Source: an uncultured Candidatus Saccharibacteria bacterium (GTDB lineage: Bacteria > Patescibacteriota > Minisyncoccia > UBA6257 > Colwellbacteraceae). From it: a stretch of 64,000 bases of DNA. The DNA lies in the NCBI GenBank assembly GCA_964643135.1, contig CAZXPC010000004.1:4716-68715 (forward strand), written 5' to 3'. Position numbers and translations under genes: made by a program. Positions 3,092-60,296 of the stretch are shown one piece after another. The notes below the pieces were generated by a model, which was not told where the DNA came from, searched no databases, and saw only the letters and a list, made by a program, of their open reading frames with translations. Within the stretch, counting starts at the first letter, position 1; each line of letters opens with the position of its first letter.

Positions 3092-3094
3092 GGG

Positions 3095-8917: not shown

Positions 8918-8955
8918 GGCCTAAGAATACCATATTAAGATATAATGAATCGATC

Positions 8956-9522: not shown

Positions 9523-9525
9523 AGG

Positions 9526-10077: not shown

Positions 10078-10085
10078 ACATCAAC

Positions 10086-11387: not shown

Positions 11388-11847
11388 TGCTTTCGTGATC
11401 TGGCTTGATCTTGCTGATCTCTGCGTTAATGCCGTCAATTAAGTCGCCCTTGTGGATTTCGGCTAGAATTTTCTTGGTTAATTCCGGCAAATTGTCCAGG
11501 TCTTTGGTCTTGTCTAGAAAAGTTACAGCGCCAAGCTCCTTCGCAAAACTTTCATTTTCGACCGAAACTCCCGGCCAGGGAATAGCGAGGCTTGTCAGAA
11601 ACGCGACGTGGATGTCTTTGAGATCGGGGTCGTTTTTATAATCGAGCAGGGCTTCGGTGCCGTTGATGCCGGGCATGCGGATATCCATCAAAACCAAATC
11701 CGGCTTTATTTTTCGAGCCTTGATAAAAGAAGTTTCGGCGTCGATTGCAGTTTCAACCTGAAAGCCGGCGGCCTCGAGGCGCATTTTGGAAATATCGAGC
11801 AAATCCGGCTCGTCATCAACGACGAGTATCAGCGGGGGCGTGTGCAT
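11377..11847 (-). CDS. Single-domain response regulator receiver (CheY-like)
   Basis: LILVVDDEPD...LVLMDIRMPGINGTE...K receiver signature; no output domain. Confidence 0.8.
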   Translation of the reverse strand: MHTPPLILVVDDEPDLLDISKMRLEAAGFQVETAIDAETSFIKARKIKPDLVLMDIRMPGINGTEALLDYKNDPDLKDIHVAFLTSLAIPWPGVSVENESFAKELGAVTFLDKTKDLDNLPELTKKILAEIHKGDLIDGINAEISKIKPDHESNGQ

Positions 11848-33200: not shown

Positions 33201-33716
33201 GCCGCCGCCGGCAACGCGCGCCGAGGGGGTAGCAACGCTATACACGCCCAGTGACGCCGCCGGAACGCCGCCAGTTTTGCCGGCAATAGCATCGTAAAGA
33301 CTGTTGGTATAAAAATTGCCCTGCGAATAACCAACCAAAAGGACTTTCTGGGTGGCAATTTGCTCGCTCGCCGATCTCTGCATCTCGATTAAGTCATAAT
33401 CATCAACCTCTCCCGAATCGAGAGTTTTTTGAACAATCGAATCTGACAAGTCAGCCAACCCACCCCAGTGCGACGGGTTGAAGAGATATTGATAATCTAT
33501 TGCTTGATTGTCAAAGATGTCTCCAACTCGCGCCTCAAGCCATCGTTGATTTGTCTCAGCTCCTTTTCTGTCAGTAAAAATACCGTTTATGGCAGAAATA
33601 GTGTATCCGACCTGAGCACATCTTATTGGTGAGTTGGCAGCAAGAACTAATTTGGTTGAAAAAATAATCAGTACTACGATCCAAATAAAAACAATTTTTA
33701 ATTTATGTATAACCAT
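30219..33716 (-). CDS. Large secreted protein: alpha/beta-hydrolase (lipase-like GYSQG) domain, Pro-rich linkers, lamin-tail domain (LTD)
   Basis: Signal peptide; GxSxG motif LLVGYSQGNFY; long PAPAP/PSPEP linkers; LTD signature QVQTTGGAGKTTNDFIELYNPTETQVNLKGYRL. Confidence 0.7.
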   Translation of the reverse strand: MVIHKLKIVFIWIVVLIIFSTKLVLAANSPIRCAQVGYTISAINGIFTDRKGAETNQRWLEARVGDIFDNQAIDYQYLFNPSHWGGLADLSDSIVQKTLDSGEVDDYDLIEMQRSASEQIATQKVLLVGYSQGNFYTNSLYDAIAGKTGGVPAASLGVYSVATPSARVAGGGKWTTSDTDKVIAGVVSRVPFMNTLQPNTHIDLQTGDDFWGHSFTDVYLKYKGDKIVADVMSSLDGLSANSTQDPEKPCLIAPPASLAHRAEGAVLSVADPVVSAGINGVGGVIQSAYFVSSSIVAAIGDFLSALSGATPTSPSKVAESSASSISDSIQISNDAANDPAPVNADTLAIDIRSQINSVQAEIARIQSSNSRTNSSSNYVSPSPKSSPPPAPAPVPATHVAPAPVVTPSSSSSSPPPAPAPNVSLLFPSASPVNQEINVSLSAANLDAVAYDVKISIESGGVLSNIYANGDWGSSNFYLTSAITGPAVSAKEFRLMIQDSKQNFRGSANILIKIRKSGGTASDQVFSGTINIVDPTQLASVPSPAPSPSPAPLPSPEPSPAPDPSPPPPPPSPAPAPEPTPSPTPAPSPEPVPPPPPPAPPAVPASTHILISQVQTTGGAGKTTNDFIELYNPTETQVNLKGYRLVKRTATGASDTLLKSWSADAFIPAHGYYLWANSGFTDISAAPDVATSESIADNNGIAIRQGPNDTGAIIDSVGWGTAQNIFVETAVSGANPGAHQSLMRKYWADGNCGSPVESSLLGNGCDTDNNADDFVIDEAPSPRNSANLPEPRSSPTSIAPLPGGDLISYDRGKLTLSFAWSPSADYSGGSAGVSYVIKDISDGFPAPLPLISTSSTSATQTITQTGRDYKFSFQAFDSGGLGSEVIERTISIPNLLSSFNFYRDPRTAGAFTIEGRFDVSKPIVPQIYYFSPDSYQLMIFYINSDASAEHEDVITDDNREEPLVKDKVLKVDYYRCDGRSDERYSFSMVTLPSMCVPGSINGGTARMNWEDGNFSAKAFSVDPAGFTSADYVTVAYYDLLSLGWFPARFEFAAADATRYYFQDAPPAQSSPTAPTDAALVSYDAATSATTVSLEPATDPDTFDASLGYEYSIDGSAFANLLRAENADQSKIYGRFGAPPGAHELVFRAFDDWGNRSPAITLSVLLE

Positions 33717-40119: not shown

Positions 40120-43100
40120 TTAGTGCTGGAGGTTCTCTGAGTCCAACGGCAAGTTCTTCACTAAGAAGTCGTTGTTCCAGTCAGTTGTGCCAACAGTGTG
40201 GCCGCTAGCTGAAACGTCGGACCAGATGAAGCTTGGGTAGGTTGAACCGCTGTTTGCGCCCTGGATAGTTAAGCCAGAGTCAGAGTCGGTCGTGGTGGCA
40301 GCAACAGTCGAACCGGCAGCATAGGTGCTGGTTACAAGAGTAATGGTTGTTACCTGTACGCCTGCGTTAGCAGAGACAGCGGTAACGTTCAATACTACCT
40401 GGTTGTCAGTACCGTTAGTACACTTGATCGACAAGATGCTTGCAACAGTGGTGGTAGTGTTACCAGTTCCGTTAATAGCATCGTAGGCGTTACAAGTGAA
40501 GCCATCGGTCGTAACCAAAGTACCGGTGATGTTGCCAATTGTGTTGGTGGCAGCGCCAGTTTCGGTCAAGATGATGGTTCGGCCAGTCGTAATGGTACCG
40601 AATGATCGGACCTCGTTGGTGCCGCTTCCTGATCCACCCAATTCTTCAACCTCTCCAGTGTTGGTTTGGCTGTAGGTGTCATCCGAAACAGAAGTCATGA
40701 TCGTGTAGCGCTTGTCGCTAGCAGTCACGGTACCTGAGTTATCAACATCCTGGTAAGCAAAACCAGTGGTCGGCGCGTTGTGAGCCGTGGTCGGCGCAGC
40801 AACTGAAGTCGAGATACTGCTGGTTGAGCCGTTGTCTGAAGCGATAGTTGCCTTAAGAGCGTAGTTAACCGAAGCGCCGCCGCTAACTTGCTGTTCCACG
40901 TTAAGTGTGCCAGCAGCGTTAGTCGGAACGAAGATGAATCGGCAAACCAAGGCAGTTGCATCACAGACCGCGTCAGAGTTAGTGACGTCGAGGATTGTGA
41001 AGACACCGGTGATCTGCTGGCTTGAATCAGAGTTCCAAAGAGCCGGAGCAGTAATAACTACTTCCGAAGTCTTGTTAACGGTGAAGACAAGCTTGTTCCA
41101 GCCGACAGTGCCGCCGTTGGCTGCGATGTTCAATTTGTCCAAAGTGATGCCGGTACCGTTCGAGATAACTGTGGAAGGTAGGGCAACGTTGGTAAGCATC
41201 GGGGTGGAAGCGTAAGCGTACATAGCGTTAGCTGGTGAGCTTACGGTCGTTGTAGCGTTAGTACCGGTTGAGCTGGTGGTCTTGTACTGGGTCAAGGTAG
41301 CTGTGATAGCTTCACCTGAAGTACCAGCGTTGAAACCAACTGTTCCCAAGACTGCGTCAACGTGAAGCACCTTGGTAACAGAGGTAACTGGGATAGACAA
41401 GCCGGTGAAGGCTACTGTGGTCGACCCTGGCATGGTGGCTAAGACGTTGTTAGACGAGTCCTTCAATTGAACTGACGAGACTGAAGTTGCCGCAGCAAGG
41501 GTTACAGTTACGTCGGTCAAAGTGTAGGTGTCGTTCGTCGCTGTCCACTTCCAGGCGCCGATCGTGTTCGTTGAATTGTCGAACAAGTTCTTAGCCAAAG
41601 GAGTAGAAGCGTCCAAACCGCTAGCAATCGTGCCGGTGGCGGCAGTAATGATCTGGCCCGAGAAGACTGCTAAGTCAGTGCTGGTGGAGCTGCTCGTACC
41701 GTCAGCTTTGGTGTACAAAGATGTCGATGAGGAAGCAGTCACGCCGACAACATCCATCTTAGTGATGATGGCATCGCCAGTTGTAATCGAAGTACCGATA
41801 TCTGCGTAGACATCAATCTGGGCTGTTCCGTTGATCGGAAGAGTGTGAGAGATGGACCAAGTGTTAGCGCCGGCGGTCGTGCTGACAGTCGGTTTAACAT
41901 TGGCTTCGGCAGTACCGTTGTAAACGATCTTGACGTTGGTCAAGTCATCAGCAGTGAAGGTCGTGCCAGTAGATGTAGCGAAGTCAACGCCAATTGTGTT
42001 GAGGTTGATTGCTTCGGTAGAGCTGCCAGTTAACTGGAACGAAGCCATCTTGTAGTTAGTCTGAGGAATAACCGTAGTCTGGTTCGTGTAGTTAGATGTC
42101 TTGGCGATAGTCAAAGTTCCGGCCTTAACGGTAACAGTGTTAGCTGAAACCGCGGCAGGAGGAACAGTTGAAAGCACGCCGGAGACTGAACCCTGCGCGT
42201 TGTTAGCCGTACCTGCGTTCAGCCTGGCCTGTAAGGTGTCGGTTGAAGCGAGGGTAGGAGTACCATCGGCGTCGTAGACGTCAGCCCGGATTTCAACAGT
42301 GTTAACACCGACTGGCAACGTTGTGTTGACAGTGTAGTTTGTCGAACCGCTGGTTGAAATGTTCTGAGTGCTGCCGTACTGAGCGCCGTTGATTACGATT
42401 CGGCCGTTGCGGAGTGAACCGACAGCTGAACCGCCAACTGCAGTGTAAACAACCTGGGCATTCAATGAGTCCAACTTAACTGGTTCGCCGTAAACGGTAA
42501 AGTTAAATTTACCAAGAGATACGTCCGAAGCGTTAAGAGTAACGTTGCCTGATGGAGAATCAGATGCCTTTTGGACAGTGATGCTGCCAGGGGTAACGGT
42601 TTGCGTGCCGCCGGTTGGCTTAGTACCAGTGATGGTAAGACCAACGCCGTACTGAACATCGATCAAACCGATGTCAGCCACAGAGCGCAAGTTGAAGGCG
42701 AAGGTTCGGTTAGAACCGCCGACAACGTCAGCTACAACTTTGAATGTCCTTGAACCAGCTAAAAGCTTAACTGGAGCAGCGGAAAGGTCAAAGGTAACGT
42801 AACCGTTAGAATCAAGCGATGGGACTGCTGAACCAACCAAAGCTCCATCTACGTAGAGACGGAAGTTTCGGATGTCAGAGTAAGCGATTGATCCAACTTC
42901 GTGAAGCGCTAACCATTTTAGCCAAACATCTTTGCTAACGCTCAAGGTGTAGGTACCCCATACGGTGATATCTACGCCAGGGTTAAGAGAAGTGTTGGTT
43001 GAAGGGTTGTTGCTTGCACCGTCGGTAAAGCTAACAGCTGAAAGGTTCGCTGAAGTTGCAACGGTCATCAAGTTGCCAGACAAGCTGGTTGGGGTGACGG

Positions 43101-43941
43101 TACCGTTTGCAGTGAATCCAGTCATTCTGATGCCGATCGTTGAACCGGCTGAAGCGTTGCCGATGTCGGCTTTAACAGAAATGACCTTTGAGCCATTAAC
43201 TGTGAACAAGCCGCCGGCGTTGGTGAAGTTGATAGCACCGCCGCTCGTTACTGAAGCGCCGTCGGTAAGACGCATTGCGCCATCGTAAAGATAGACGTTC
43301 GCTAAATCAGAGTCAGCAGAGATACCAAACCTCTGAAGGTTGACTGCTGTAACTACGCCAGAACCGGTAAAGGTGACGTGTAGGAAGTCAGCGCCTGCCT
43401 CTCCAAGGTTAGAAACCGTGCTAACTACAACAGTTCTAGAAGCTGGGGTGTCAGACGATAGGAATGCTGACACGCCTGAAGCTGGAACTGGAGTTGGGGT
43501 CGGAGTTGGGGTCGGAGTTGGGGTCACAACAACGCCACCGAGACTGGCGATCTTAGCCCTAGTGATAGGACCGAAGAAGCCGGTTGCTGGTACGCCGTGT
43601 AATTCCTGCCATCCCATTAAAGCTGCTTTGGTTTTTAAGCCAAAGTAGGTGGTCTCAAAACCAGGGCGTCCTGCGCCGTCCGATGAAGGAGCAACGAGTG
43701 AGCCGTGGGTGTTGAGGTAGATTTGCAATTGGCGAACATCTTCTCCGACAGATCCGACTGTGAGGTTTCGGGTCCATACGTAGGTAGATGAGGAGCCTTG
43801 CAAAGCTGCTAACTGAGCTTGTAAGGCTGCTAACTGAGCTTGCAAGTCAGAAACAGTAGCCGCGTGAGCAGCGCCTGAACCAACAAGAAGAGTTACAGCC
43901 AAAAGAGCGACAGTCGCAATCTTTTTAAATGCGATACTCAT
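40120..43941 (-). CDS. Giant (1273 aa) secreted surface protein with N-proximal PG_binding_1 domain and long beta-rich Thr/Ser/Gly/Ala-rich body (candidate S-layer/adhesin)
   Basis: Signal peptide; LQAQLAALQAQLAALQG heptad; VGEDVRQLQIYLNTHG...GFETTYFGLKTKAALMGWQ PG-binding motif; TPTPTPTPTPTPVP linker. Confidence 0.7.
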   Translation of the reverse strand: MSIAFKKIATVALLAVTLLVGSGAAHAATVSDLQAQLAALQAQLAALQGSSSTYVWTRNLTVGSVGEDVRQLQIYLNTHGSLVAPSSDGAGRPGFETTYFGLKTKAALMGWQELHGVPATGFFGPITRAKIASLGGVVVTPTPTPTPTPTPVPASGVSAFLSSDTPASRTVVVSTVSNLGEAGADFLHVTFTGSGVVTAVNLQRFGISADSDLANVYLYDGAMRLTDGASVTSGGAINFTNAGGLFTVNGSKVISVKADIGNASAGSTIGIRMTGFTANGTVTPTSLSGNLMTVATSANLSAVSFTDGASNNPSTNTSLNPGVDITVWGTYTLSVSKDVWLKWLALHEVGSIAYSDIRNFRLYVDGALVGSAVPSLDSNGYVTFDLSAAPVKLLAGSRTFKVVADVVGGSNRTFAFNLRSVADIGLIDVQYGVGLTITGTKPTGGTQTVTPGSITVQKASDSPSGNVTLNASDVSLGKFNFTVYGEPVKLDSLNAQVVYTAVGGSAVGSLRNGRIVINGAQYGSTQNISTSGSTNYTVNTTLPVGVNTVEIRADVYDADGTPTLASTDTLQARLNAGTANNAQGSVSGVLSTVPPAAVSANTVTVKAGTLTIAKTSNYTNQTTVIPQTNYKMASFQLTGSSTEAINLNTIGVDFATSTGTTFTADDLTNVKIVYNGTAEANVKPTVSTTAGANTWSISHTLPINGTAQIDVYADIGTSITTGDAIITKMDVVGVTASSSTSLYTKADGTSSSTSTDLAVFSGQIITAATGTIASGLDASTPLAKNLFDNSTNTIGAWKWTATNDTYTLTDVTVTLAAATSVSSVQLKDSSNNVLATMPGSTTVAFTGLSIPVTSVTKVLHVDAVLGTVGFNAGTSGEAITATLTQYKTTSSTGTNATTTVSSPANAMYAYASTPMLTNVALPSTVISNGTGITLDKLNIAANGGTVGWNKLVFTVNKTSEVVITAPALWNSDSSQQITGVFTILDVTNSDAVCDATALVCRFIFVPTNAAGTLNVEQQVSGGASVNYALKATIASDNGSTSSISTSVAAPTTAHNAPTTGFAYQDVDNSGTVTASDKRYTIMTSVSDDTYSQTNTGEVEELGGSGSGTNEVRSFGTITTGRTIILTETGAATNTIGNITGTLVTTDGFTCNAYDAINGTGNTTTTVASILSIKCTNGTDNQVVLNVTAVSANAGVQVTTITLVTSTYAAGSTVAATTTDSDSGLTIQGANSGSTYPSFIWSDVSASGHTVGTTDWNNDFLVKNLPLDSENLQH

Positions 43942-45174: not shown

Positions 45175-46785
45175 ATGGCAAAGCGAACTGTGGTGATGGT
45201 GGTGATGGATGGATGGGGGGTCGGTAAAAGGGATGACACCAATCCGATTTATATTAAAAATCCTCCGACGATTAATTTTATTAAGCACAATTATAAGGCC
45301 GGGGTTTTGCAGGCTTCGGGCATTGCGGTCGGCTTGCCTTGGGATGAGGAAGGTAATTCGGAAGTTGGCCACTTAACGCTGGGGTCGGGGCGAGTTTTGT
45401 ACCAGCACTACCCGCGCATAACTTTGGCGATACGGAGCGGAGCTTTTTTCAGCAACGAAGTTTTGCTCGCGGCGATTAACAAGGCTAAGGCGGCGAAAAA
45501 GAATGTCAACATAATAGGCGTCTTGTCCGAGGGCAATGTCCACGCCTCGCTTGATCACCTGCATGCCCTAATCGAGCTGGCTAAAAGAGAAGCAGTAACG
45601 CAGATCAACCTGCATCTTTTTACAGACGGCAAAGACGGACCGTCGAAACACGGGGCGCAGCTTTTACGGGGCATCGGGAAAAAGGCTGAAGAGATAGCCG
45701 GACAGGGCCAAGGTGCTTTGCAAGTTAAACTGGGCAGCGTCGGCGGCCGGTACTATGGAATGGACCGTGATGGACATACGGACAGGACCGAGAAAGCGTA
45801 TATGGCGATATTTGGGCAAGGTGAAGGCGCCACCTCTGCTAACGCCGGGGAAACACCTCCAGGCGATTGGTTTGAGAAAGCGGCGGAGTATGTTGAGAGC
45901 CAATATAAAGCAGGTATTACTGATGAGTATATTACGCCAACGGCGGTTGACTCAACCGGTGCGGTTAAAGATGGCGACAGCGTTATATTTTTCGATTTCA
46001 GGGAAGACAGCATGAGGCAGATCACCGAAATGTTTCTAAATGACCCGAGGCAGAAGACGGAAGACCGGAAGCTAAATATTGTTACGTTTACAAATTACAA
46101 TGACAAATATGATTTGCCGGTGGCCTTTCCGCCTGAAGATGTAAAAAATCCCCTGGGGAAAGTTATATCGGACAGCGGCCGAACGCAATTAAGAATCGCC
46201 GAGTCGAATAAATACGCTCACGTAACCTATTTCTTCAACGGGTTTCAGGAGGTGCCGTTTAAGAATGAATATCGGGCGCTGGTCCCCTCTCAAAACGTGG
46301 CGCGGCACGACGAACACCCGGAAATGATGGCGCAGGAAATTACCGAACGGGCGCTGGCGGCTATTGCCGAAGGTATTTATGATTTTATTCTGATTAACTA
46401 TGCCAACGCCGATATTGTGGCTCATACCGGCAATTACAACGCGACTTTAAAGGCGGTCGAGGTAGTTGACGAACAGATTAAGAGGCTAACCGAAGCGGTG
46501 CTGAAGGCCGGCGGAGTGATGCTCATTACCGCAGACCACGGCAATGCCGAGAAGCTGATCGAACCGGATACGGGCCTGCCGGAGACTAAACACGATAAAT
46601 CGCCGGTACCGGTATATATCATCGGCCGGGAGTTTGCGGCGCCAAAGGACGACTTTGTGGTAGCCCAAACAGAAAACGAGAGCGCCGGGCTGATTTCGGA
46701 CGTGGCGCCGACAATCTTGGAAATAATGGGGCTGAAGGCGCCGGAAGAAATGACGGGGATATCGCTCCTGCGGATTTTGCAGTAG
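45175..46785 (+). CDS. gpmI: 2,3-bisphosphoglycerate-independent phosphoglycerate mutase
   Basis: VVMVVMDGWG, SEVGHLTLGSGR, ADHGNAE metal-binding motifs of iPGM. Confidence 0.9.
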   Translation: MAKRTVVMVVMDGWGVGKRDDTNPIYIKNPPTINFIKHNYKAGVLQASGIAVGLPWDEEGNSEVGHLTLGSGRVLYQHYPRITLAIRSGAFFSNEVLLAAINKAKAAKKNVNIIGVLSEGNVHASLDHLHALIELAKREAVTQINLHLFTDGKDGPSKHGAQLLRGIGKKAEEIAGQGQGALQVKLGSVGGRYYGMDRDGHTDRTEKAYMAIFGQGEGATSANAGETPPGDWFEKAAEYVESQYKAGITDEYITPTAVDSTGAVKDGDSVIFFDFREDSMRQITEMFLNDPRQKTEDRKLNIVTFTNYNDKYDLPVAFPPEDVKNPLGKVISDSGRTQLRIAESNKYAHVTYFFNGFQEVPFKNEYRALVPSQNVARHDEHPEMMAQEITERALAAIAEGIYDFILINYANADIVAHTGNYNATLKAVEVVDEQIKRLTEAVLKAGGVMLITADHGNAEKLIEPDTGLPETKHDKSPVPVYIIGREFAAPKDDFVVAQTENESAGLISDVAPTILEIMGLKAPEEMTGISLLRILQ

Positions 46786-49959: not shown

Positions 49960-50041
49960 GGGCGGATGGTGGAACTGGCATACACCTGCGTCTCAGAAGC
50001 GCAGTCCGCAAGGATTGAGGGTTCAAATCCCTCTCCGCCCA
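49960..50041 (+). tRNA. tRNA-Leu (anticodon CAG), class II with long variable arm
   Basis: Manual fold: acceptor GGGCGGA/TCCGCCC; U8; 3-bp D-stem GTG/CAC with 11-nt D-loop GAACTGGCATA (compare E. coli tRNA-Leu GAAUUGGUAGA); anticodon stem TGCGT/GCGCA with loop CTCAGAA (U33, anticodon CAG); 13-nt variable arm; T-arm GAGGG-TTCAAAT-CCCTC; discriminator A73; CCA not encoded. Confidence 0.85.
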
Positions 50042-50086
50042 CAATAGTTATAAAAATAATTAGAAAAATAATATTAATTAATAGGT

Positions 50087-52699: not shown

Positions 52700-53683
52700 T
52701 TAAATCAACCCAACCTTTTCGCGGACTTCGGCCATGGTTTTTTGGGCGATCTTTTGGGCGGTTTTAGCGCCGGCGGCTAGAACTTTGTTAACCTTGGATT
52801 TGTTCTTGAGGATTTTGGCGCGGTTTTGCTGAATCGGTTTCAGTGCTTTAATAATCAAGTCGGCTAATTCTGACTTAAACTCGGAATATTTTTTATTAGC
52901 TGAGCGCAAGACAATATCTTCCACCGGTAGGCCGGAAAATTCGCTATAGAGCATTACGAGATTCGAAATGCCGGGGCGGTTGACGGGGTCGTAGTCGACG
53001 TTGGACATGGAGTCGGTCACAGCCGACATAACTTTCTTTTTGATAACTTCCGGCGAATCGTGCACAAAGATACAACCCAGCGGCTGAGACTTGGACATTT
53101 TTTTCGACGGATCTTGCAGGCTCATCACGCGCGGCGTTTTGGTCACAACTGCTTTGGGATCTTTAAATGTTTGTCCGAAGCGCGTATTGAAAGATCGGGC
53201 GATGTCGCGAGTAAGTTCGATGTGCTGGCGCTGATCGTCCCCTACTGGAATAGCTTCGGCGTGGTAGAGCAAAATGTCGGCGGCCATTAAAACCGGGTAC
53301 TCAAAGAGGCCGACGTTGGGCACTTGGCCCTCGGCGACTTTTTCTTTGTATTCCACCATGCGTTCCAGCTGGGAAACGGTGATGACGGTGTTAAAAATCC
53401 ACTGTAAATTGGCGTGCTCGGGAACGTCAGACTGAACGAAAAGGACAGACTTTTTTGGATCCAATCCGGCGGCTAGAAGATCAACAGCCAGATCGAAAAC
53501 CCGAGTTTTCATTTCTTCGCGGGTAAACTTCTGGGTCATGGCGTGCAAATCAGCAATGAAGTAAAAACAGCGATATTGGTTCGAGTTCTGCAGATCAACG
53601 GCTTGGCGGAGCATGCCGAGATAGTTGCCGATGTGGAGGTCGCCGGTCGGCTTCACACCGCTTACGATTATGGGTTTGGTCAT
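52700..53683 (-). CDS. trpS: Tryptophan--tRNA ligase
   Basis: TGDLHIGNYLG (HIGH-type) and KMSKS motifs, TrpRS-like overall; start at internal Met MTKPIIVSG (53683), 7 nt after the ileS stop. Confidence 0.85.
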   Translation of the reverse strand: MTKPIIVSGVKPTGDLHIGNYLGMLRQAVDLQNSNQYRCFYFIADLHAMTQKFTREEMKTRVFDLAVDLLAAGLDPKKSVLFVQSDVPEHANLQWIFNTVITVSQLERMVEYKEKVAEGQVPNVGLFEYPVLMAADILLYHAEAIPVGDDQRQHIELTRDIARSFNTRFGQTFKDPKAVVTKTPRVMSLQDPSKKMSKSQPLGCIFVHDSPEVIKKKVMSAVTDSMSNVDYDPVNRPGISNLVMLYSEFSGLPVEDIVLRSANKKYSEFKSELADLIIKALKPIQQNRAKILKNKSKVNKVLAAGAKTAQKIAQKTMAEVREKVGLI

Positions 53684-53690
53684 ATTTAAA

Positions 53691-56600
53691 TTATAGCTTT
53701 TTGAGGCCGATCCAAACGTCTTCGCCGCTGATTTTGGTTTCGGAAAGGGCGGTGAATTTGTCGGTTTTCTTGTAATGGATGGCAGCGGTGCCGGTGTTGC
53801 TCTTAAGAGCATCGAGGTGGGCTTCGATCGCGGCTTGGATATTTTCGGAAGCCTCGATATAAAGCTCGATCTTGTCGCTCGGCTTCAGATCGGCATCTTG
53901 GCGGAGGGCTTGGACGGCGCGGTTAAGTTCGCGCATGGCGCCTTCGCGTTTTAGATCTTCGGTCAGGTTGGTGTCTAAAATAATTTCTTCCTTAGCGCCT
54001 TTGTCGAAGATCACTTTCTTAACATTAATCTCATCGGACAAGACTTCCAGCAGTTCGCCATCAAGGTTTAGGGGGTTATTTCTAATGGTGAGGCTGGCTA
54101 ACGGCTGACGAACTTTGATATTAGCTTCGGCCCGCTTGGCCAAACCGGCGGCGGCCAGGCGGCGAACTTCTTCCATCTTTTTATTTAGATCTTTGTCGAT
54201 AAATTTGGCGTGAACTTCGGGCCAATTGTCGAGGTGGACGGATTTATCGCCCGCGGCCATGGATTTGTAGAGCGCATCGGCAAAAAAGGGCGCGAAGGGA
54301 GCAATCATTTTCGAGATTTCGAAAATCACAAAAAGCAGAGTTTTAACCATGTCGTTGCGATCGCGGCTGCGGCGGATATACCAGCGCGAGAGGTCGTCGA
54401 CCAGGCTTTCCAGCGAGCGGGCGGCGAGGCCGATTTCATACTTATCCAGGCTATCGGTAGCAAATTGGACGGTTTCGCTGAGGCGGGACAAAATCCACTT
54501 ATCTAAAACGTGGTTAGGGTGCGGGTGCTCGGGCACGGGGTTGGGCGTGTGTTCAAGCGTTTCGGAAAAGAGATATGAGTTGTAGAGAATGCCGAAAAAC
54601 CTACGTGAAACTTTGCCGAGATCGGCTTCGTCAAAATCTTTATTCTCACCGGGCGGATTAACAGTATAGAAATACCAGCGGATGACGTCGGCGCCGTATT
54701 TATTGATCATTTCCCACGGATCGACGATATTGCCCTTTGATTTAGACATTTTTTGGCCGAATTTATCGTGGATTAGGCCAAGCGAGATCACGTTTTTGTA
54801 AACTTCTTTCCGGCCGAGAATGACACCCACCGCGAGCAGAGTGTAGAACCAGCCGCGGGTTTGATCCATGCCTTCGCTGATATAATCCGCCGGGAAACCG
54901 ACGCCGATCTTGTCGATCAGATCTTTATTTTCGAACGGATAGTGGACCGAGGCAAAAGGCATGGCGCCGGAATCAAACCAGACATCAGCCACGTCGGGGA
55001 TGCGCTCCATGCGTACCATTTTCCTAGAGTTCTTTTTGCCTTTATTCTTTGGTATACATTTCTCGCACTTCAAATGGACCCGGTCAATATAGGGGCGGTG
55101 AAGGTCAACTTTGCCGACCTTGTTGTATGAAATATTTTTGAAAATGATCTCGCGCCACTCGCCCGGCTGGAGCGGAACCACTGCCATGGAATCTTCGTTA
55201 GAAAGATTCTTCACGGCGGCCTCGAGCATCCAGAGAGGATCGCCGTGGCTTACAATCAAAATAGTTTTGCCTTCATGGGCTGAATCTACTTCATCCAAGA
55301 ATTGGAAAACCCTCTCTTTTACTTGGGTCAGAGTTTCCCCGCCTGAAGGGGCCTTAAGGAATTTCTCGGTAACGTTGTCGAAAAAGCTGTTATATTCTTT
55401 GGAAGTTTTCCAGTTGAAAATACCGGCATTGATTTCGCCCAAACGCTTGTCCTCGATAACCTTGGCGCTGATAGTTTTGCTCAATATTTTGACCGTCTCT
55501 TTAGCGCGAGCGAAAGGCGAAACGTAGATGAGGTCGATTTTTTCTTTTTTGAGGGCTTTCGCGGCAGCATCGGCGGCAGCCTTGCCTTCTTTGGTTAAGT
55601 GAGAAATTTTGCCCTTGGTTTCGGGGCCGGAAGCCATAACATCTTTAACATTATGTTCGGCTCCGCCGTGGCGCATCAGAATAAAGCGGTTGTTTTGAAC
55701 GGCGCTGGACTCAAGGTCGGCCAGGCTTTCTACAACCTTCACGTGGCCTTCTTTACACTGCCAGATCGGCAGAGGGGTGGCCCAATATCTTTCGCGCGAG
55801 ATAGCCCAATCTTTAGCTTCTTTGATCCATTCGCCGAACCGGCCGGTTTTGATTGAAGCGGGAATCCAGTTGACCTTATTATTAGCGGCCATCAATTTGT
55901 CACGCAAAGTCGACATAGCGATAAACCACGAATCCATGGCGTAATAAAGAAGCGGGGTCGAACAGCGCCAGCAAAAAGGATATTCGTGGGTATAAGGTTC
56001 GGTTTTGACTAGGAAATTTTCTTTGTCGAGATGATCGAAGATGCGCGATTCGGTGTCTTTCGCTTTGGCGTAAAAACCGCCGAGCTTGGGCACGTCTTTA
56101 ATGAAGAGGCCGGACTTCTCAACGGTGTGATGCTGAGGAAGCCCTAGCTTTTTGCCTAAGTTGTAGTCGTCTTCACCATACATGACGGCCGTGTGGACCA
56201 CTCCGGTGCCGTCGGTTGTCGTTACAAAATCAGCCGGGTAGACATGATAAGCTTTTTTGGCTGTTTGGCTTTTTTGCTGGAAGGGCTTAATGTCCCAAAG
56301 CGGCTCGTAAGCCAGGCCAACCAAATCTTTGCCTGTTAAAACGCCTATTTCTTTGCCTTTGGTGGTCTTAGCAAGAGGCATGTCGTGGAAATAGACGCCC
56401 TCTTTGTCGTGGATATCCTTGGCGATAATCCAATATTCCGGCTCGCCCGACCGACTGGCACCGCCGACTTTGTGTTCGATCGTGACATATTTGATCTTCT
56501 CCCCAACCGCCAAAGCCACGTTGCCCGGCAAGGTCCAAGGAGTTGTAGTCCACGAGAGAATATAAACATTACCGTTGGCTTTTAAATCTTTAGAAATTTT

Positions 56601-57263
56601 CTGACCTTTTTTGACGCGAAATTTGATATAGACCGAGGCGTCGGTTGTCTCTTTATAACCCTGGGCGATTTCGTGAGAAGAAAGCGCGGTACCGCAGCGC
56701 GTACACCAAGGCACAATTTTGTGGCCTTTATAGAGCAGTTTCTTTTGCCAAGCCTGGGCTAAGATCCACCAAAGCGATTCGATATATGTTTTTTTATAAG
56801 TAACGTAAGGATTTTTAAGATCAACCCAGTAGCCGGTGCGCTCGGTCATCCGCTCCCACTCGTCTTTATACTGCCAAACCGATTCTTTGCAGCGCTGATT
56901 GAATTCGGCAATGCCGTATTTTTCGATATCTTTTTTAGACTTGAAGCCGAGCGCTTTTTCAACTGCTATTTCCACCGGCAGGCCGTGAGTATCCCAGCCG
57001 GCTTTGCGGGGCACGTAATAACCCTTCATCGATTTATAACGGGGAATGATGTCTTTATAGCTTCGGGAGAGCATGTGGTGAAGGCCAGGCGAACCGTTGG
57101 CAGTCGGCGGGCCTTCCCAAAAGTTAAATATCTTAGGCGCTTCCTCCCCCTTCATCTGCCTTCGTTGGGCGAGAGATTTTTCGAAAATATTATATTTTTT
57201 CCAAAAGTCGAGAACTTTTTCTTCGAGATTGGGGAGATTGAATTCTTTTATGTTCTTCAGCAT
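53691..57263 (-). CDS. ileS: Isoleucine--tRNA ligase carrying an inserted histidine-phosphatase (PGAM-like) domain
   Basis: Class I motifs PPTANGSPGLHHMLS (HIGH) and KMSKSKGN; editing domain; zinc-knuckle CWRC/CEKC. Residues about 526-700 (nt about 55164-55688) contain RHGGAEHN ... LIVSHGDPLWML, the two catalytic-His motifs of the phosphoglycerate-mutase / histidine-phosphatase superfamily, inserted between IWQCKEGH and DLHRPYID. Confidence 0.85.
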   Translation of the reverse strand: MLKNIKEFNLPNLEEKVLDFWKKYNIFEKSLAQRRQMKGEEAPKIFNFWEGPPTANGSPGLHHMLSRSYKDIIPRYKSMKGYYVPRKAGWDTHGLPVEIAVEKALGFKSKKDIEKYGIAEFNQRCKESVWQYKDEWERMTERTGYWVDLKNPYVTYKKTYIESLWWILAQAWQKKLLYKGHKIVPWCTRCGTALSSHEIAQGYKETTDASVYIKFRVKKGQKISKDLKANGNVYILSWTTTPWTLPGNVALAVGEKIKYVTIEHKVGGASRSGEPEYWIIAKDIHDKEGVYFHDMPLAKTTKGKEIGVLTGKDLVGLAYEPLWDIKPFQQKSQTAKKAYHVYPADFVTTTDGTGVVHTAVMYGEDDYNLGKKLGLPQHHTVEKSGLFIKDVPKLGGFYAKAKDTESRIFDHLDKENFLVKTEPYTHEYPFCWRCSTPLLYYAMDSWFIAMSTLRDKLMAANNKVNWIPASIKTGRFGEWIKEAKDWAISRERYWATPLPIWQCKEGHVKVVESLADLESSAVQNNRFILMRHGGAEHNVKDVMASGPETKGKISHLTKEGKAAADAAAKALKKEKIDLIYVSPFARAKETVKILSKTISAKVIEDKRLGEINAGIFNWKTSKEYNSFFDNVTEKFLKAPSGGETLTQVKERVFQFLDEVDSAHEGKTILIVSHGDPLWMLEAAVKNLSNEDSMAVVPLQPGEWREIIFKNISYNKVGKVDLHRPYIDRVHLKCEKCIPKNKGKKNSRKMVRMERIPDVADVWFDSGAMPFASVHYPFENKDLIDKIGVGFPADYISEGMDQTRGWFYTLLAVGVILGRKEVYKNVISLGLIHDKFGQKMSKSKGNIVDPWEMINKYGADVIRWYFYTVNPPGENKDFDEADLGKVSRRFFGILYNSYLFSETLEHTPNPVPEHPHPNHVLDKWILSRLSETVQFATDSLDKYEIGLAARSLESLVDDLSRWYIRRSRDRNDMVKTLLFVIFEISKMIAPFAPFFADALYKSMAAGDKSVHLDNWPEVHAKFIDKDLNKKMEEVRRLAAAGLAKRAEANIKVRQPLASLTIRNNPLNLDGELLEVLSDEINVKKVIFDKGAKEEIILDTNLTEDLKREGAMRELNRAVQALRQDADLKPSDKIELYIEASENIQAAIEAHLDALKSNTGTAAIHYKKTDKFTALSETKISGEDVWIGLKKL

Positions 57264-57529: not shown

Positions 57530-58537
57530 TTAACCGAGCCTGTTACGGACGGCGACGCAGACGAAGTCGCCCGAGACAAACTCTTCGACGGTGATCGTAT
57601 CGAGGTGGAGAACCTCGCCGTGGAAGGTTGCCTTGACTAGGGAGTCTCGGCCGTTCGCGCGGACTTCTTCGATCGCGCTTACGTAGGGCTTGCCTTCTTC
57701 AACCAGGCCGGCTTGCTTGGCCTCTCGGAGGATCACTCCAAAGGCCACGATGCGGGCCGGCTTCTGCTTCAAGAGCTCCATTCTCTTCATCACATCTCCG
57801 GGCAATTGCCCCTTGGAAGAGAGAGTGATGTTGCCCACGATGTCCGTTTTCAACGGGCCGCCGAGCCGGTCGAGGAGGTGGCGCACGATCGGCTCTGCGG
57901 TAACTAGGCCGCCGAACATTTCGCCGAGCTTGAGGCTCCCGCCGGGAATGGTGACCAAGATCTCGGTCGGAACCTGGACCCGGTTCGGGTTGGCGTGATG
58001 CTCCACCATCTTCGGCGCGTTGCCGTTCGGCTCGTTCCGCTTGTTCCAATCCAGCCAGTTGCCATGCTGACGTCCGGTTCCGATACCAACAGCCGGATCG
58101 TCTGAGATGGGCGGAACTTTCGGACCGGTCTTCTTCACAGGCGGGAAAGATGCGATCCTCCTGCCCCTCGGAGGAGGTGGCGGGGGCCTGAGAGATCTCG
58201 CGTCGACGTGGCTCTCATCCCAGAGACGCTCCGATACGATGGGCGATAGCCCAGGATCAGGCGGCTTAGGCTCCACGACCGGCGCGGACTCAGGTTCCGG
58301 AGCCGGCGGCAGAGGGGGCGGTTCCGCCTCCACTGCGACAGCTTTCGGTTCTGGCGGGATCGCGGCCGGCTTCGGGACAACGGGCTTCAGAGGAGACGGC
58401 TTCGCGAGGCCCTTCTCGATCAATGCATCGAGGGCCTTGTTCACTTCGGGACATGAGATCCTCTCTTCGCTCATCAAGCGGCCGAGTGTGTACATCTTGT
58501 CGAAGTATTCTCGTTGCTTAACTATGTCGAACGTCAA
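57530..58537 (-). CDS. Pro-rich hypothetical protein, GC-rich (about 60%)
   Basis: 335 aa; central PPxP-rich region; strong third-position G/C bias unlike its neighbours. Confidence 0.5.
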   Translation of the reverse strand: MTFDIVKQREYFDKMYTLGRLMSEERISCPEVNKALDALIEKGLAKPSPLKPVVPKPAAIPPEPKAVAVEAEPPPLPPAPEPESAPVVEPKPPDPGLSPIVSERLWDESHVDARSLRPPPPPPRGRRIASFPPVKKTGPKVPPISDDPAVGIGTGRQHGNWLDWNKRNEPNGNAPKMVEHHANPNRVQVPTEILVTIPGGSLKLGEMFGGLVTAEPIVRHLLDRLGGPLKTDIVGNITLSSKGQLPGDVMKRMELLKQKPARIVAFGVILREAKQAGLVEEGKPYVSAIEEVRANGRDSLVKATFHGEVLHLDTITVEEFVSGDFVCVAVRNRLG

Positions 58538-58559: not shown

Positions 58560-60296
58560 CTACATTTTCTCAAGAGTGTCAACGCCAAGAAGGTTGAGGC
58601 CGGTTTTGAGGATTTTGGCGGCGGTGGAGATGAGGGCGAGGCGGGCGTTTTTGGTTGGAGCATCAGCCTTCAAAACCGGCTCGACTTGGTAGAAATGATT
58701 GATTGATTTCGCTAGATCATATAAGTAGTTGGCTAACTCATTCGGGTAGTATTCCTTAGCGACTCGCTCCAAGACCTCGGGGAAACGGTCGAGTTTTTGG
58801 ATAATTTCCAGCTCAAGTTCAGTGCTCAAGTATTTAACTTCTATTTTGCTGGTTGCTTTGCTTTTTCGCAAAATACTTTTAAGTCGAGCGTATGAATACT
58901 GCAAGTACGGACCGGAGTCTCCTTCAAATGAGAGCATCTTATCCCAATCAAAGGTGATGTTGGATAGCCGGTTTTGTGAAAGGTCGTTATATTTCAAGGC
59001 ACCGATCGCCACAACTTTGGCGATTTTATCATTTTCGCCTGCTGAGAGACCACGGTCCTTTTCGGCGATGATCTTCGATGTCTTTTCGATGGCCTCAGCA
59101 ATGACGTCTTCCATGAAAATGGTTTTACCGGCTCGGGTGGAGAGCTTTTTGCCGTCTTCTCCCAAAACAAGGCCGTGGGCAACGTGGACCAATTCGGTTT
59201 CTTTGGCTTTTGTTAGTTCCGGCAGAAAATCATTTTTAGCAATTGCGAAAAGTTGTTTAAAGTGAAGTTCTTGTTCGTTACCGATCTCATAAATAATCTT
59301 GGCCGGGTGGTATTTTTTAATTCGATAAATAATATTGGCGATATCGCGGGTTAAGTAAAGCGTTGCGCCGTCAGATTTTTCGATCATGGCCGGGGGCAAA
59401 CCCAAATCGTCTAGCGGGATTATCAACGCACCTTCGCTGCGAACCGCGATTTCTTCGTGAACCAGATATTCGATGATTTTCTTTAAATCTTTTTCATAAA
59501 AACTTTCGCCGATTTCCAGCTCAAACTTAACGCCGAGTGTTTTGTACATCTTATTGAATTCCCTAACCGCTTCGGCGCGGAAATTTTGCCACAGCTTGCG
59601 GTTGGCTTCGTCCCCTGCCTCGAGTTTCCTAAATTCTTCTTGGCCTTTTTTCTCCAACTCGGGATTGGTTTTGGCTTCAGCCGTGAAACGGACATAAAGC
59701 TCGAGCAAGTGCTTGATTGGTTCGGTTTTGAGCTTCTTTTCATCGCCCCACATATTGTAAGCCGCCGTTAGCTTGCCGAACTGCACTCCCCAATCACCCA
59801 GATAATTCCAGCGAATTGTTTTATAGCCTAAGAATTGATGAATATTAGCGATGGCGTCACCAATAATGGTCGAGCGGAAGTGGCCAACATGCATGGGTTT
59901 GCCTATATTGGGCGAGGAATACTCGACGATGACCTTGGTATTCTTGCCCACATTAACTTTTCCCCAATTTTTTGTTCGGGAGATGTTTAGAAATTCTTTT
60001 TGGATGGCTGCTCTGGTAAACCAGATATTAATAAACCCCGGTGCGGCGATATCGATTTTTTCGATCAAGTTTTTTGGCGCGGCGTGGACTAGAAATTCCT
60101 TAACATAATTAGCGGCCTGCATCGGACTCATTTTCTTTTGCTGATTCTCCTTGGCCACCACAAAAGCGATATTGGTCGCCAAGTGGCCGTGAGTTTTTAT
60201 TTCCGGCGGGGCCAATTTATACGAAAGATTAGGAAACCCGCTATTTAAAAGTTTTTTTATCCGGGCGCCAAGCATGATACAATTCAAGAATAACAT
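58560..60296 (-). CDS. argS: Arginine--tRNA ligase
   Basis: SSPNIGKPMHVGHFRSTIIGDAIANI (HIGH region), ArgRS N-terminal and DALR anticodon-binding domains; start could alternatively be the Met at 60275. Confidence 0.9.
   Translation of the reverse strand: MLFLNCIMLGARIKKLLNSGFPNLSYKLAPPEIKTHGHLATNIAFVVAKENQQKKMSPMQAANYVKEFLVHAAPKNLIEKIDIAAPGFINIWFTRAAIQKEFLNISRTKNWGKVNVGKNTKVIVEYSSPNIGKPMHVGHFRSTIIGDAIANIHQFLGYKTIRWNYLGDWGVQFGKLTAAYNMWGDEKKLKTEPIKHLLELYVRFTAEAKTNPELEKKGQEEFRKLEAGDEANRKLWQNFRAEAVREFNKMYKTLGVKFELEIGESFYEKDLKKIIEYLVHEEIAVRSEGALIIPLDDLGLPPAMIEKSDGATLYLTRDIANIIYRIKKYHPAKIIYEIGNEQELHFKQLFAIAKNDFLPELTKAKETELVHVAHGLVLGEDGKKLSTRAGKTIFMEDVIAEAIEKTSKIIAEKDRGLSAGENDKIAKVVAIGALKYNDLSQNRLSNITFDWDKMLSFEGDSGPYLQYSYARLKSILRKSKATSKIEVKYLSTELELEIIQKLDRFPEVLERVAKEYYPNELANYLYDLAKSINHFYQVEPVLKADAPTKNARLALISTAAKILKTGLNLLGVDTLEKM

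Follow-up and report, generated by a model that had tools for sequence, protein, structure and literature searches.

A compact histidine phosphatase of branch 1 (~185 amino acids) is inserted into the second-zinc-knuckle loop of a type-2 isoleucyl-tRNA synthetase (IleRS) from a Parcubacteria-type bacterium (Patescibacteria/CPR). We put the probability that this is an ancient and genuine insertion at about 0.9; the estimate holds jointly with the view that the domain belongs to a CPR-specific subfamily with the signature ILIVSHGDPLW, whose separate-gene form lies just upstream of an ileS lacking the insert, to which it is translationally coupled. Taken whole, i.e. with identity, mechanism and a guess at the role combined, our explanation stands at even odds. 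Few enzymes are as conserved as the aminoacyl-tRNA synthetases, and it is very rare for a new catalytic domain to lie within their catalytic body, the editing domain being the classic case.

The gene lies in the window, i.e. the whole stretch of 64,000 nucleotides that was analysed. Its reading frame is single and unbroken, as an earlier note on this DNA had stated. In a profile search the protein scores 820.7 bits with TIGR00392 (ileS; cutoff 621.4), and Pfam returns a split PF00133, PF08264 (aa 921-1055) and PF19302 (DUF5915, aa 1022-1189), the latter in keeping with a type-2 C-terminal organisation. The best matches among solved structures are P. megaterium IleRS2 (8C8W/8C8V, TM 0.78-0.81) and T. 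thermophilus IleRS (1ILE). The gene and its parts are as follows.

53691-57263, minus strand: ileS, complete type-2 IleRS with insert, 1190 aa plus stop (open-reading-frame list)
55701-57263, minus strand: N-terminal part of IleRS, aa 1-521, with the catalytic fold's first half, aligning with T. thermophilus IleRS 1-480
55107-55700, minus strand: whole insert, phosphatase domain plus linkers, aa 522-719 (phmmer alignment to 1ILE)
53691-55106, minus strand: C-terminal part of IleRS, aa 720-1190, of which aa 720-1047 align with T. thermophilus IleRS 489-819
55755-55757, minus strand: C503, the ligand that survives in the first half of zinc knuckle two (116/120 relatives)
55056-55067, minus strand: C733-E-K-C736, by motif position the other half of that knuckle (C733 and C736 in 116/120)

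The N-terminal part holds the HIGH-like GLHH (aa 60-63), the Zn1 knuckle (C187/C190 and C431/C434), WAISRERYWATPLPIW and the CP1 editing domain with WTTTPWT (aa 238-244) and GTGVVH (aa 352-357). DLHRPYID (aa 720-727), CEKC (aa 733-736), DVWFDSG (aa 760-766), QTRGWF, KMSKS (aa 838-842, 54738-54752), the anticodon-binding domain and the C-terminal domain of type 2 (DUF5915) follow in the C-terminal part. Among fused relatives H62/H63 and K838-M-S-K-S842 are invariant, as are the editing residues W238, T239, T240, G352, G354, V356, D365 and D366 (117 sequences). With the HIGH-like, KMSKS, Zn1 and editing motifs invariant in 117-120 relatives, the earlier claim that the flanking IleRS motifs are intact holds. 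The protein stays below the cutoffs of the MupA/MupB resistance IleRS models (NF000257/8; 732.8 and 727.6 vs 1900) and of ileS_w_GNAT (NF040702; 292.8 vs 1999), and has no GNAT match in Pfam. Judged by these motifs, the window IleRS is intact and predicted to be functional, and the phosphatase is likewise intact.

In the alignment to 1ILE, 198 residues stand for 8 residues of the T. thermophilus second zinc knuckle. Orthologs lacking the insert have at this site a zinc-knuckle loop of ~35 aa (WxCxxC...GSIxELxxL...DLHRPYID...CxxC) and nothing more, which disposes of the possibility raised earlier that the segment is a known connective-peptide element. The earlier length of about 175 residues (55164-55688, aa 526-700) describes the fold core well; the full insert with its linkers is longer, about 190-198 aa. 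The quoted motifs are all present in the order given, PLPIWQCKEGH (aa 497-507) being followed by RHGGAEHN (aa 531-538, 55650-55673) and LIVSHGDPLWML (aa 669-680, 55224-55259). In the first half of the knuckle the window protein reads CKEGH where most relatives have CxxC (family consensus WxCxxCG). The GC content of the insert (0.474) is close to that of the rest of the gene (0.490), GC3 matches likewise, and the flanks of the insert show a single chance 12-mer and no terminal repeats of a mobile cassette.

We dropped the idea that the insertion site equals the editing-domain site of bacterial LeuRS, going by the motif order of the E. coli enzyme. In E. coli LeuRS the editing domain precedes the SRQRYWGAPIP segment; the site in the window IleRS we take to be a ZN2-like element instead.

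The insert matches PF00300 (His_Phos_1) at aa 528-691 with E=3.4e-33 and 115.4 bits (cutoff 21.7), covering profile positions 2-165 of 194, and the match is nested within the split PF00133. This is further supported by the AlphaFold (AF2) model of the protein (pLDDT 91, pTM 0.85), in which the insert forms a separate, discrete alpha/beta domain with the three-layer fold of branch-1 histidine phosphatases. Both results agree with the earlier proposal of a phosphoglycerate-mutase-like histidine-phosphatase domain between PLPIW and DLHRPYID of an intact IleRS. The fold core and the predicted catalytic residues map as follows.

55146-55688, minus strand: histidine-phosphatase fold core, aa 526-706 (from beta1, aa 526-531, to the last strand, aa 703-706)
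55665-55673, minus strand: RHG motif with R531, H532 (predicted phospho-acceptor) and G533, assigned by conservation
55506-55508, minus strand: R586, second phosphate-binding arginine (SPFARAKET), 120/120
55434-55436, minus strand: E610, predicted general acid/base, 112/120, role by family homology
55242-55250, minus strand: S672-H673-G674 with the second catalytic histidine, in the signature ILIVSHGDPLW; H673 120/120

R531 and H532 are found in 120/120 fused relatives and G533 in 114/120. Free-standing homologs carry RH[G/T/A] in 58/58 and the second histidine in 54/58 cases. The catalytic core of the PF00300 superfamily (RHG histidine, second arginine, glutamate and second histidine) is thus present by sequence, and the insert is a complete, apparently active phosphatase. 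Conservation of catalytic and IleRS motifs alike points to purifying selection on both activities. The insert shows 42% identity vs 60% for the rest of the protein, i.e. it evolves faster.

The best structural neighbours of the domain are PhoE, PspA and GpgP, with identities of 29% to PhoE and 27% to PspA, and a cap segment (aa ~611-650) is present as in small-molecule enzymes. Scores with the curated models for PspA (NF045917, 71.9 vs 350) and CobC (TIGR03162, 72.3 vs 162.9) are below cutoff, so that these enzymes are structural neighbours only, and the GpmB model is missed by far. We rejected the glycolytic dPGM of the cell as an identity. The dPGM models remain under cutoff (TIGR01258, 37.9 vs 81.7; NF038349, 73.8 vs 225; NF002339, 39.5 vs 316), the domain has ~185 aa vs ~230-250 for dPGM, and the window has an iPGM gene of its own at 45175-46785. 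A Pnkp-type RNA end-healing enzyme is not indicated either, as Pfam finds no kinase domain in the window protein.

The insertion is lineage-wide and conserved. PF00300 is carried by 120/120 of the closest full-length relatives (50-81% identity, from many independent Patescibacteria assemblies), and a relative is present in at least 541 of the GTDB species representatives. Among the 80 best genome loci the phosphatase is embedded in 69, in the nested order N-IleRS / phosphatase / C-IleRS; it lies immediately upstream of ileS in 9, and 2 are special cases still in ileS.

The subfamily also occurs as a free-standing gene of ~190 aa directly upstream of an insert-less ileS. Such homologs adjoin ileS in 16/17 cases, several of them at a distance of -4 to +9 nt, and the top 150 subfamily representatives comprise 76 with IleRS segments and 69 free-standing proteins. 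In the L003 pair, for instance, the phosphatase gene occupies 8001-8579 and the insert-less ileS 8581-11451. One free-standing copy (L092) is flanked by argS and recO instead of adjoining ileS, and at another locus the second reading frame is a degenerate paralog with RPG in place of RHG (L046 ORF2). In a neighbour-joining (NJ) tree the upstream-type IleRS do not group as one clade (0/100 bootstraps) and nested pairs have 88-99% support. This points to a minimum of 3 switches between the inserted and the upstream-gene state; in such simple NJ trees, however, some of them could be an appearance created by recombination or by the transfer of ileS alleles. The tree of the phosphatase domain itself, with ~170 columns, is too short for the direction of events.

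In Gracilibacteria/Peregrinibacteria the IleRS contain one to four phosphatase copies at three sites, i.e. the Zn2 loop, after DVWFDSG and after KMSKS, and nearly all of these copies keep the RHG and second-histidine motifs. GNAT, P-loop (PNK/Zeta-like) kinase and alpha/beta hydrolase domains are found in some of these proteins as well, the combination of GNAT with His_Phos in many. In one IleRS (P0365) a HAD phosphatase occupies the site taken by His_Phos in others. Since the embedded, upstream-gene and multi-site forms are all tied to IleRS, the phosphatase is very probably a dedicated IleRS partner, inside ileS or as a coupled gene.

Two further observations concern the inserts in general. 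A gene homologous to the HAD domain lies directly downstream of a fused ileS at one locus (L001), the only one surveyed where HAD and Ser-hydrolase neighbours are homologous to inserted domains. Clearly selfish in-frame inserts, namely a DUF559 endonuclease and an IS200-type transposase, are also tolerated by CPR IleRS, so that some insertions may be passengers.

The genes around ileS encode two further synthetases.

58560-60296, minus strand: argS (context; Pfam on the window reading frame), the gene most often found upstream of the ileS/phosphatase unit
52700-53812, minus strand: trpS reading frame (context), with the TrpRS motifs GDLHIGNY and KMSKS

The true start of trpS is probably an internal Met near 53683, a few nucleotides after the ileS stop. 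Upstream, argS is found in ~24-27 of 72 loci, and a tRNA-synt_1b gene is located downstream in 10/70. Among the neighbouring genes surveyed, 72 of them upstream and 70 downstream, only argS, recO and trpS recur, and no conserved extra pathway partner was seen.

Members of the histidine-phosphatase superfamily are phosphomonoesterases or mutases; of the activities suggested in the earlier note, that on 2',3'-cyclic phosphates would be untypical of them. The domain would act as a phosphomonoesterase, with H532 as the transient phospho-acceptor, E610 as acid/base and the phosphate bound by R531, R586 and H673, and its place would be at the edge of the catalytic fold's second half. As to its role, we offer a guess that we regard as tentative and somewhat on the doubtful side: the phosphatase could strip the phosphate off a nucleotide-type species linked to aminoacylation, be it a derivative of an adenine nucleotide or a tRNA-Ile with a phosphorylated 3' end, and so keep IleRS unblocked. 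The nearest solved structures are small-metabolite phosphatases (for phosphoserine, glucosyl-3-phosphoglycerate and alpha-ribazole-P), none of which acts on RNA. Moreover, a general function on tRNA ends or nucleotides needs no obvious tie to IleRS alone, which speaks against this guess.

Among the alternatives, the one that fares best sees in the domain a passenger, i.e. an ordinary small-metabolite phosphatase (e.g. specific for phosphoserine or a sugar phosphate) that rides on an essential, constitutive gene for co-expression or stability and has no link to aminoacylation. We consider it rather unlikely. It would fit the metabolite phosphatases, CobC included, that are the nearest structures, the faster evolution of the insert, the many unrelated inserts accepted by CPR IleRS and the single free-standing copy away from ileS. 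Co-expression, however, would be given by any operon or terminal fusion, whereas members of this subfamily, as many as four per protein, have gone into no fewer than three loops within the catalytic body and are otherwise found directly upstream of ileS. The unrelated HAD fold at the His_Phos site of another IleRS and the curated metabolite-specific models, all of them below cutoff, also argue against a mere passenger.

In a bolder version of the role guess, which we hold to be unlikely, the CPR IleRS is a platform for accessory enzymes whose targets are the acceptor end of tRNA-Ile or adenylate-like ligands at the synthetic site. The phosphatase would free tRNA-Ile or a bound nucleotide of a 2'/3'-phosphate that blocks it, and the PNK-like kinase, GNAT, Nudix and hydrolase domains of sister lineages would join in. 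If this were true, repair or detoxification resident on the synthetase would be a third quality control beside aminoacylation and editing.

Regulation is a further, still less probable option. As a sensor of a phospho-metabolite or as a protein phosphatase for phospho-His/Ser/Tyr, the domain could tune IleRS or a signalling partner and tie translation to the energy or phosphate status in cells where global regulators are few. The cap segment and the best matches, however, are those of small-molecule enzymes and not of SixA, which aligns with the domain over 131 residues only, and the window protein has no kinase.

The extra domains of sister IleRS also bring to mind a conflict or repair module, in which the IleRS platform would undo hostile modification of tRNA-Ile or IleRS or disable adenylate-mimic inhibitors, and the phosphatase would remove a phosphate that is added by a toxin or derives from cleavage. 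We rate this as improbable. His_Phos or HAD is joined there with PNK/Zeta-like kinase, GNAT and alpha/beta hydrolase domains, and in SR1 with Nudix (PMC3812714). Such activities are typical of end-healing and detoxification enzymes, and NCBI has a curated 'ileS_w_GNAT' family. Against this, neither the window IleRS nor a free-standing homolog (P0012) matches the defence-system models of PADLOC, the trait spans the clade and is old, with no patchy distribution, and the window protein has the phosphatase alone. We know of no toxin specific to tRNA-Ile 3' ends, which also counts against it. The idea overlaps with our guess at the role.

Very improbable is a dead structural filler or selfish in-frame cassette that replaces or decorates the zinc knuckle. 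The window knuckle is short of one cysteine, selfish in-frame domains are known in related IleRS and the RPG paralog is degenerate; the five catalytic residues, however, are conserved across 120 fused and 58 free-standing proteins, C503, C733 and C736 are retained, and the insert lacks flanking repeats and has the composition of its host gene. A chimeric assembly or a frameshift joining a phosphatase gene to ileS, the sequencing error against which the earlier note had cautioned, is refuted by more than 120 independent full-length relatives, the 69/80 loci with the same nested order, the unbroken frame, an identical protein on an independent public contig of 71.9 kb and the coherent AF2 model, even if some database relatives, seen as short PF00133+PF00300 matches, are frameshift fragments from error-prone, low-coverage assemblies (L002 at 1.97x; L001).

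The preferred reading thus remains that of an ancient insertion with a function linked to IleRS. A second, apparently active enzyme is kept on IleRS over a large part of the Candidate Phyla Radiation, in minimal, host-dependent bacteria, and phosphatase activity has been repeatedly kept attached by selection, physically or genetically. The modes of attachment comprise insertion at several sites, tandem multiplication and tight operon coupling, and once an unrelated phosphatase fold is used instead. This pattern argues for a real, unrecognised functional requirement linking dephosphorylation to isoleucyl-tRNA synthesis. The identity of the substrate could reveal a new quality-control step for tRNA or nucleotides, a new input that regulates translation or a means of defence against some inhibitor. 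Experiments on the system are feasible, since a single polypeptide is involved, H532A is a clean point mutant, nature supplies a split form for comparison and the loop that would have to be put back is precisely defined. Were the domain a passenger after all, the repeated switches between insert and upstream gene would provide a natural example of how domain insertions arise.

With the solved type-2 IleRS (8C8V/8C8W; 1ILE) the window protein shares the fold, the domain order, the HIGH-like and KMSKS motifs, CP1 editing, two zinc knuckles and the type-2 C-terminal domains; it differs in the 198 residues that take the place of an 8-residue turn, where no solved IleRS has a domain. PhoE (1H2E), PspA/iPSP1 (4IJ5), GpgP Rv2419c (4QIH/6S2Q) and CobC (6E4B) are free-standing metabolic enzymes, whereas the window subfamily has the signature SHGDPLW and is associated with IleRS. 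T4 Pnkp and PFK-2/FBPase-2 combine kinase and phosphatase, in contrast to the kinase-less window protein, and the phosphatase of T4 Pnkp is a HAD-type enzyme. NF040702 ('isoleucine--tRNA ligase, N-acetyltransferase domain-containing') is a curated family of IleRS with an extra enzymatic domain, in that case the GNAT domain which the window protein lacks. Mycobacterial MutT1 (Nudix + RHG; 3FJY, 9CXX) is a terminal fusion rather than an insertion and involves no aminoacyl-tRNA synthetase. Its RHG domain is described as of unknown activity (PMC11784022); we therefore dropped MutT1 as a precedent for the substrate and keep it as an architectural parallel only.

The closest precedent is the IleRS of SR1, whose sequence is broken up by phosphoglycerate mutase domains, two in number, and a Nudix domain (Kantor et al. 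2013, mBio, PMC3812714). That report devotes one descriptive sentence to it, leaving aside site mapping, conservation, the operon form and function. The earlier note's view that no phosphatase within an aminoacyl-tRNA synthetase is known therefore overstated the novelty, the more so as annotation pipelines (JGI, NCBI) already label many phosphatase-bearing IleRS. A literature search on IleRS with histidine phosphatase, Patescibacteria and fusion found no functional study. The insert is not mentioned in the main text of a 2026 preprint on IleRS domain evolution. Both the SR1 and the window protein are CPR IleRS interrupted in-frame by PGM-family (PF00300) domains, and a search from a Gracilibacteria-type relative shows that multi-insert IleRS are common and carry the same phosphatase subfamily. 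The window protein differs in belonging to the Parcubacteria side and in having a single domain, located in the Zn2 loop, and no Nudix. Insert-bearing IleRS are thus not wholly new; what is new here is the upstream-gene form, the switches between the two states and the copies at multiple sites.

The ileS gene of the window is a single uninterrupted open reading frame, and a motif check of its translation recovered every motif cited in the earlier note at the position assigned to it:

53691-57263, minus strand: ileS, uninterrupted open reading frame of 1190 aa
aa 497-507 (window 55743-55775), minus strand: PLPIWQCKEGH
aa 531-538, minus strand: RHGGAEHN
aa 669-680, minus strand: LIVSHGDPLWML
aa 720-727, minus strand: DLHRPYID
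aa 733-736, minus strand: CEKC
aa 838-842, minus strand: KMSKS

The inserted segment that had been read as a histidine phosphatase (55164-55688, i.e. aa 526-700) is matched by PF00300 (His_Phos_1; E=3.4e-33) over aa 528-691. A split PF00133 encloses this domain and is followed by Anticodon_1 and DUF5915 in the Pfam analysis; the NCBIfam equivalog model for ileS, whose cutoff is 621.4 bits, gives the protein 820.7. In a phmmer alignment with the T. thermophilus IleRS (1ILE), residues 1-480 correspond to aa 1-521 and residues 489-819 to aa 720-1047; 8 residues of 1ILE are thus represented by 198 residues in the window protein (window 55107-55700). The insertion point lies within the second zinc knuckle (Zn2), between its CQAC and CAC ligands. 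GC and GC3 of the insert resemble those of the remainder of ileS, and a search for repeats flanking the insert found none. Zn2 of the window protein reads CKEGH (in aa 497-507) compared to CxxC in most fused relatives and all insert-less partners; C503, C733 and C736 are retained, so that one ligand is missing or replaced, with H507 as candidate substitute.

The earlier note had named a sequencing error as a possible source of an artificial fusion. We reject this explanation, since the frame is uninterrupted, an identical protein is present on an independent public contig of 71.9 kb and all 120 best full-length matches (50-81% identity, 1141-1373 aa) also contain PF00300. Named sources of these matches comprise Colwell-, Jorgensen- and Liptonbacteria, Paceibacterota, Minisyncoccia and Parcubacteria; short two-domain matches are frameshift fragments from poor assemblies. 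In the 120 fused relatives the phosphatase residues R531, H532, R586 and H673 never vary and E610 is kept in 112; on the IleRS side there is no exception for the HIGH-like HH, for KMSKS, for the first zinc knuckle or for the editing motifs (WTT, GTGxVH, DD). Taken over its whole length, the insert changes faster than the synthetase, with mean identities to the window protein of 42% and 60%, respectively. Pfam and NCBIfam profiles, the 1ILE alignment and conservation in relatives thus bear out the domain-level reading: one polypeptide combines an intact IleRS with an intact histidine-phosphatase active site, and judged by their motifs both predicted active sites look alive.

Curated models for dPGM, PspA, CobC and GpmB all score far under cutoff, and the window separately encodes a cofactor-independent PGM:

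45175-46785: cofactor-independent PGM

The domain is therefore a superfamily member that has none of the characterised specificities.

The closest non-embedded relatives are proteins of about 190 aa with about 40% identity that likewise carry the ILIVSHGDPLW signature defining this subfamily of CPR (Patescibacteria) phosphatases, and free-standing members retain the catalytic pair too. Four independent contigs each place such a gene directly ahead of, and on one strand with, an ileS of 954-993 aa that lacks the insert. The spacing is a 1 nt gap, a 4-nt overlap and a 4 nt gap in three of them; in the fourth (L009, 871-2881) a three-ORF block of about 2 kb separates the two genes, and one of its ORFs has a weak Eco57I (restriction-modification) match. 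The insert-less partners keep the canonical knuckle WxCxxC...GSIxELxxL...DLHRPYID...CxxC, relative to which the insert sits just ahead of DLHRP.

A scan of GTDB species representatives found a relative in at least 541 genomes. In 69 of the 80 best loci the phosphatase is embedded in ileS, and in 9 it lies immediately upstream of an insert-less ileS; of the other two, one has a fused ileS broken by a frameshift and one a fused ileS with a second fused paralog behind it. Three of four further free-standing genes adjoin ileS, which brings the free-standing genes with this neighbour to 16 of 17. An exhaustive subfamily profile search gave 300 clusters at E<=1e-30, and among the best 150 representatives, which were classified, IleRS segments are present in 76, with 69 being free-standing proteins. 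The phosphatase is thus a partner of IleRS, whether inserted or separate, and the association has been strongly and repeatedly selected.

The sole exception (locus L092, 5001-5567) stands between the two genes that usually flank ileS, overlapping the argS end and with recO next in line, as though ileS had dropped out of the cluster or moved. A small NUDIX gene lies about 4-7 kb upstream of the phosphatase at L092, L091 and L003/L004/L005, and the conserved gene order of the split-type lineages runs NUDIX ... L20/L35/IF3, SmpB, argS, phosphatase, ileS. This may be coincidence, yet it is notable given the Nudix domain reported in the SR1 IleRS.

In a neighbour-joining tree built from the 930-column alignment of the IleRS core, with the insert taken out, upstream-type IleRS were monophyletic in none of 100 bootstraps; one deep upstream-type clade has 100% support and others are nested, at 99% and 88%, in fused clades. 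At least three switches of state, or else an exchange of alleles, are implied. The alignment of the phosphatase domain was too short for an informative tree.

Across 72 loci, the only neighbours of the ileS/phosphatase unit that recur are argS on its upstream side and recO or trpS on its downstream side. The window order is argS, unknown ORF, ileS, trpS; since argS directly precedes the unit in many related loci, the unknown ORF looks like an insertion between argS and ileS. It lies in a GC-rich island (GC 0.60-0.67 vs about 0.48 in the flanks) with long overlapping ORFs on both strands. Other window features are listed with it:

57530-58537, minus strand: proline-rich ORF of 335 aa between argS and ileS, no Pfam match
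15287-17902, 30219-33716 and 40120-43941: three very large probable surface proteins (871-1273 aa) with Big_7/fn3, Lamin-tail and PG_binding_1 domains
49960-50042: single tRNA-Leu(CAG), just upstream of RNase J

The phosphatase-in-IleRS arrangement is a clade-wide CPR trait and not peculiar to the window. Matches of the subfamily profile also include IleRS proteins with 2-4 phosphatase domains, and a search with one of these, P0255, found PF00300 in nearly all IleRS of 1200-1860 aa from Gracilibacteria, Peregrinibacteria and Peribacteria. Insertions recur at three sites of the catalytic body:

Site A: the Zn2 loop, as in the window IleRS
Site B: just past DVWFDSG
Site C: past KMSKS, ahead of the anticodon-binding domain

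Nearly all copies in these multi-insert proteins keep the RHG/RHA and second-His motifs. Other inserted domains are GNAT, for which NCBIfam curates an 'ileS_w_GNAT' model, an AAA_33/Zeta-type P-loop kinase, an alpha/beta Ser-hydrolase, DUF559 (endonuclease-like) and an IS200-type Y1 transposase; in P0365 a HAD phosphatase occupies site B, which holds His_Phos in other IleRS (e.g. P0304). IleRS appears to be a domain-insertion hotspot in CPR. Six Gracilibacteria/Peregrinibacteria-type proteins of 1370-1790 aa (P0304, P0317, P0355, P0365, P0382, P0388) carry in-frame extra domains at the three sites and inside the editing domain CP1.

At locus L001 a fused ileS has a HAD gene (8242-8847) as its immediate downstream neighbour and a Ser-hydrolase gene (2948-3523) about 3 kb upstream; the two are homologous to the domains inserted in P0365 and P0355 (E=2e-13 and E=1e-28, respectively). 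At this one locus HAD and Ser-hydrolase, like the histidine phosphatase, occur as neighbour gene or inserted domain. At L046 (8128-11157) a divergent 1009-aa paralog directly follows a normal fused ileS, with counterparts in P0213/P0303. The paralog lacks the entire editing domain (aa 200-428 of the window protein), its HIGH, DVWFDSG, QTRGWF and KMSKS motifs are degenerate and RPG replaces RHG in its phosphatase, with the zinc-knuckle cysteines kept; it is predicted to be a doubly inactive pseudo-synthetase and pseudo-phosphatase that recurs in other samples. Many loci whose IleRS cluster with Harrisonbacteria or Parcubacteria (L011, L012, L014, L045, L085 and others) are titled 'uncultured Candidatus Saccharibacteria', and two records are titled Acutalibacteraceae and Candidatus Binatia. 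Generic labelling or mis-binning of contigs probably accounts for such titles, and taxonomic spread should therefore not be inferred from them.

By the chemistry of the family, H532 would attack a phosphomonoester to form a phospho-enzyme, E610 would protonate the leaving group and water would then free the phosphate. Our leading reading, tentatively held at a probability of about 0.35-0.45, is that the phosphatase is active and serves the chemistry of IleRS, with a nucleotide-type species or the 3' end of tRNA-Ile as substrate; a version in which it repairs or detoxifies is counted in. It is favoured because the recurrent insertions lie in loops surrounding the catalytic fold's second half and not at the termini, because the phosphatase domain has multiplied and recruitment has extended to a second phosphatase fold, and because kinase, GNAT and Nudix domains are added in sister lineages. 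A passenger metabolic phosphatase ranks second and is rather unlikely; in its favour, the domain has metabolite phosphatases as structural neighbours, and other inserts are tolerated by IleRS. Third, and more doubtful still, comes a regulatory sensor or protein phosphatase. Dead filler, a selfish cassette or an artefact is unlikely.

The earlier note knew of no phosphatase embedded in an aminoacyl-tRNA synthetase. A literature search found no published analysis or test of the arrangement, and phosphatase and Patescibacteria are absent from the main text of a 2026 preprint on domain architectures of 96,219 IleRS sequences. Most relatives are named 'class I tRNA ligase family protein' at NCBI, and some carry the JGI label 'isoleucyl-tRNA synthetase/phosphohistidine phosphatase SixA/...GNAT'. 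An SR1 IleRS interrupted by two phosphoglycerate mutase domains and a Nudix domain was mentioned by Kantor et al. 2013 (PMC3812714). The arrangement is unusual, but its novelty is tempered by this mention and the database annotations, in which the architecture was recorded without explanation. Compared with these records, four things are, as far as can be told, new: the Parcubacteria form with a single domain at the Zn2 loop, the form split within an operon, the multiplicity of insertion sites and the alternative HAD fold.
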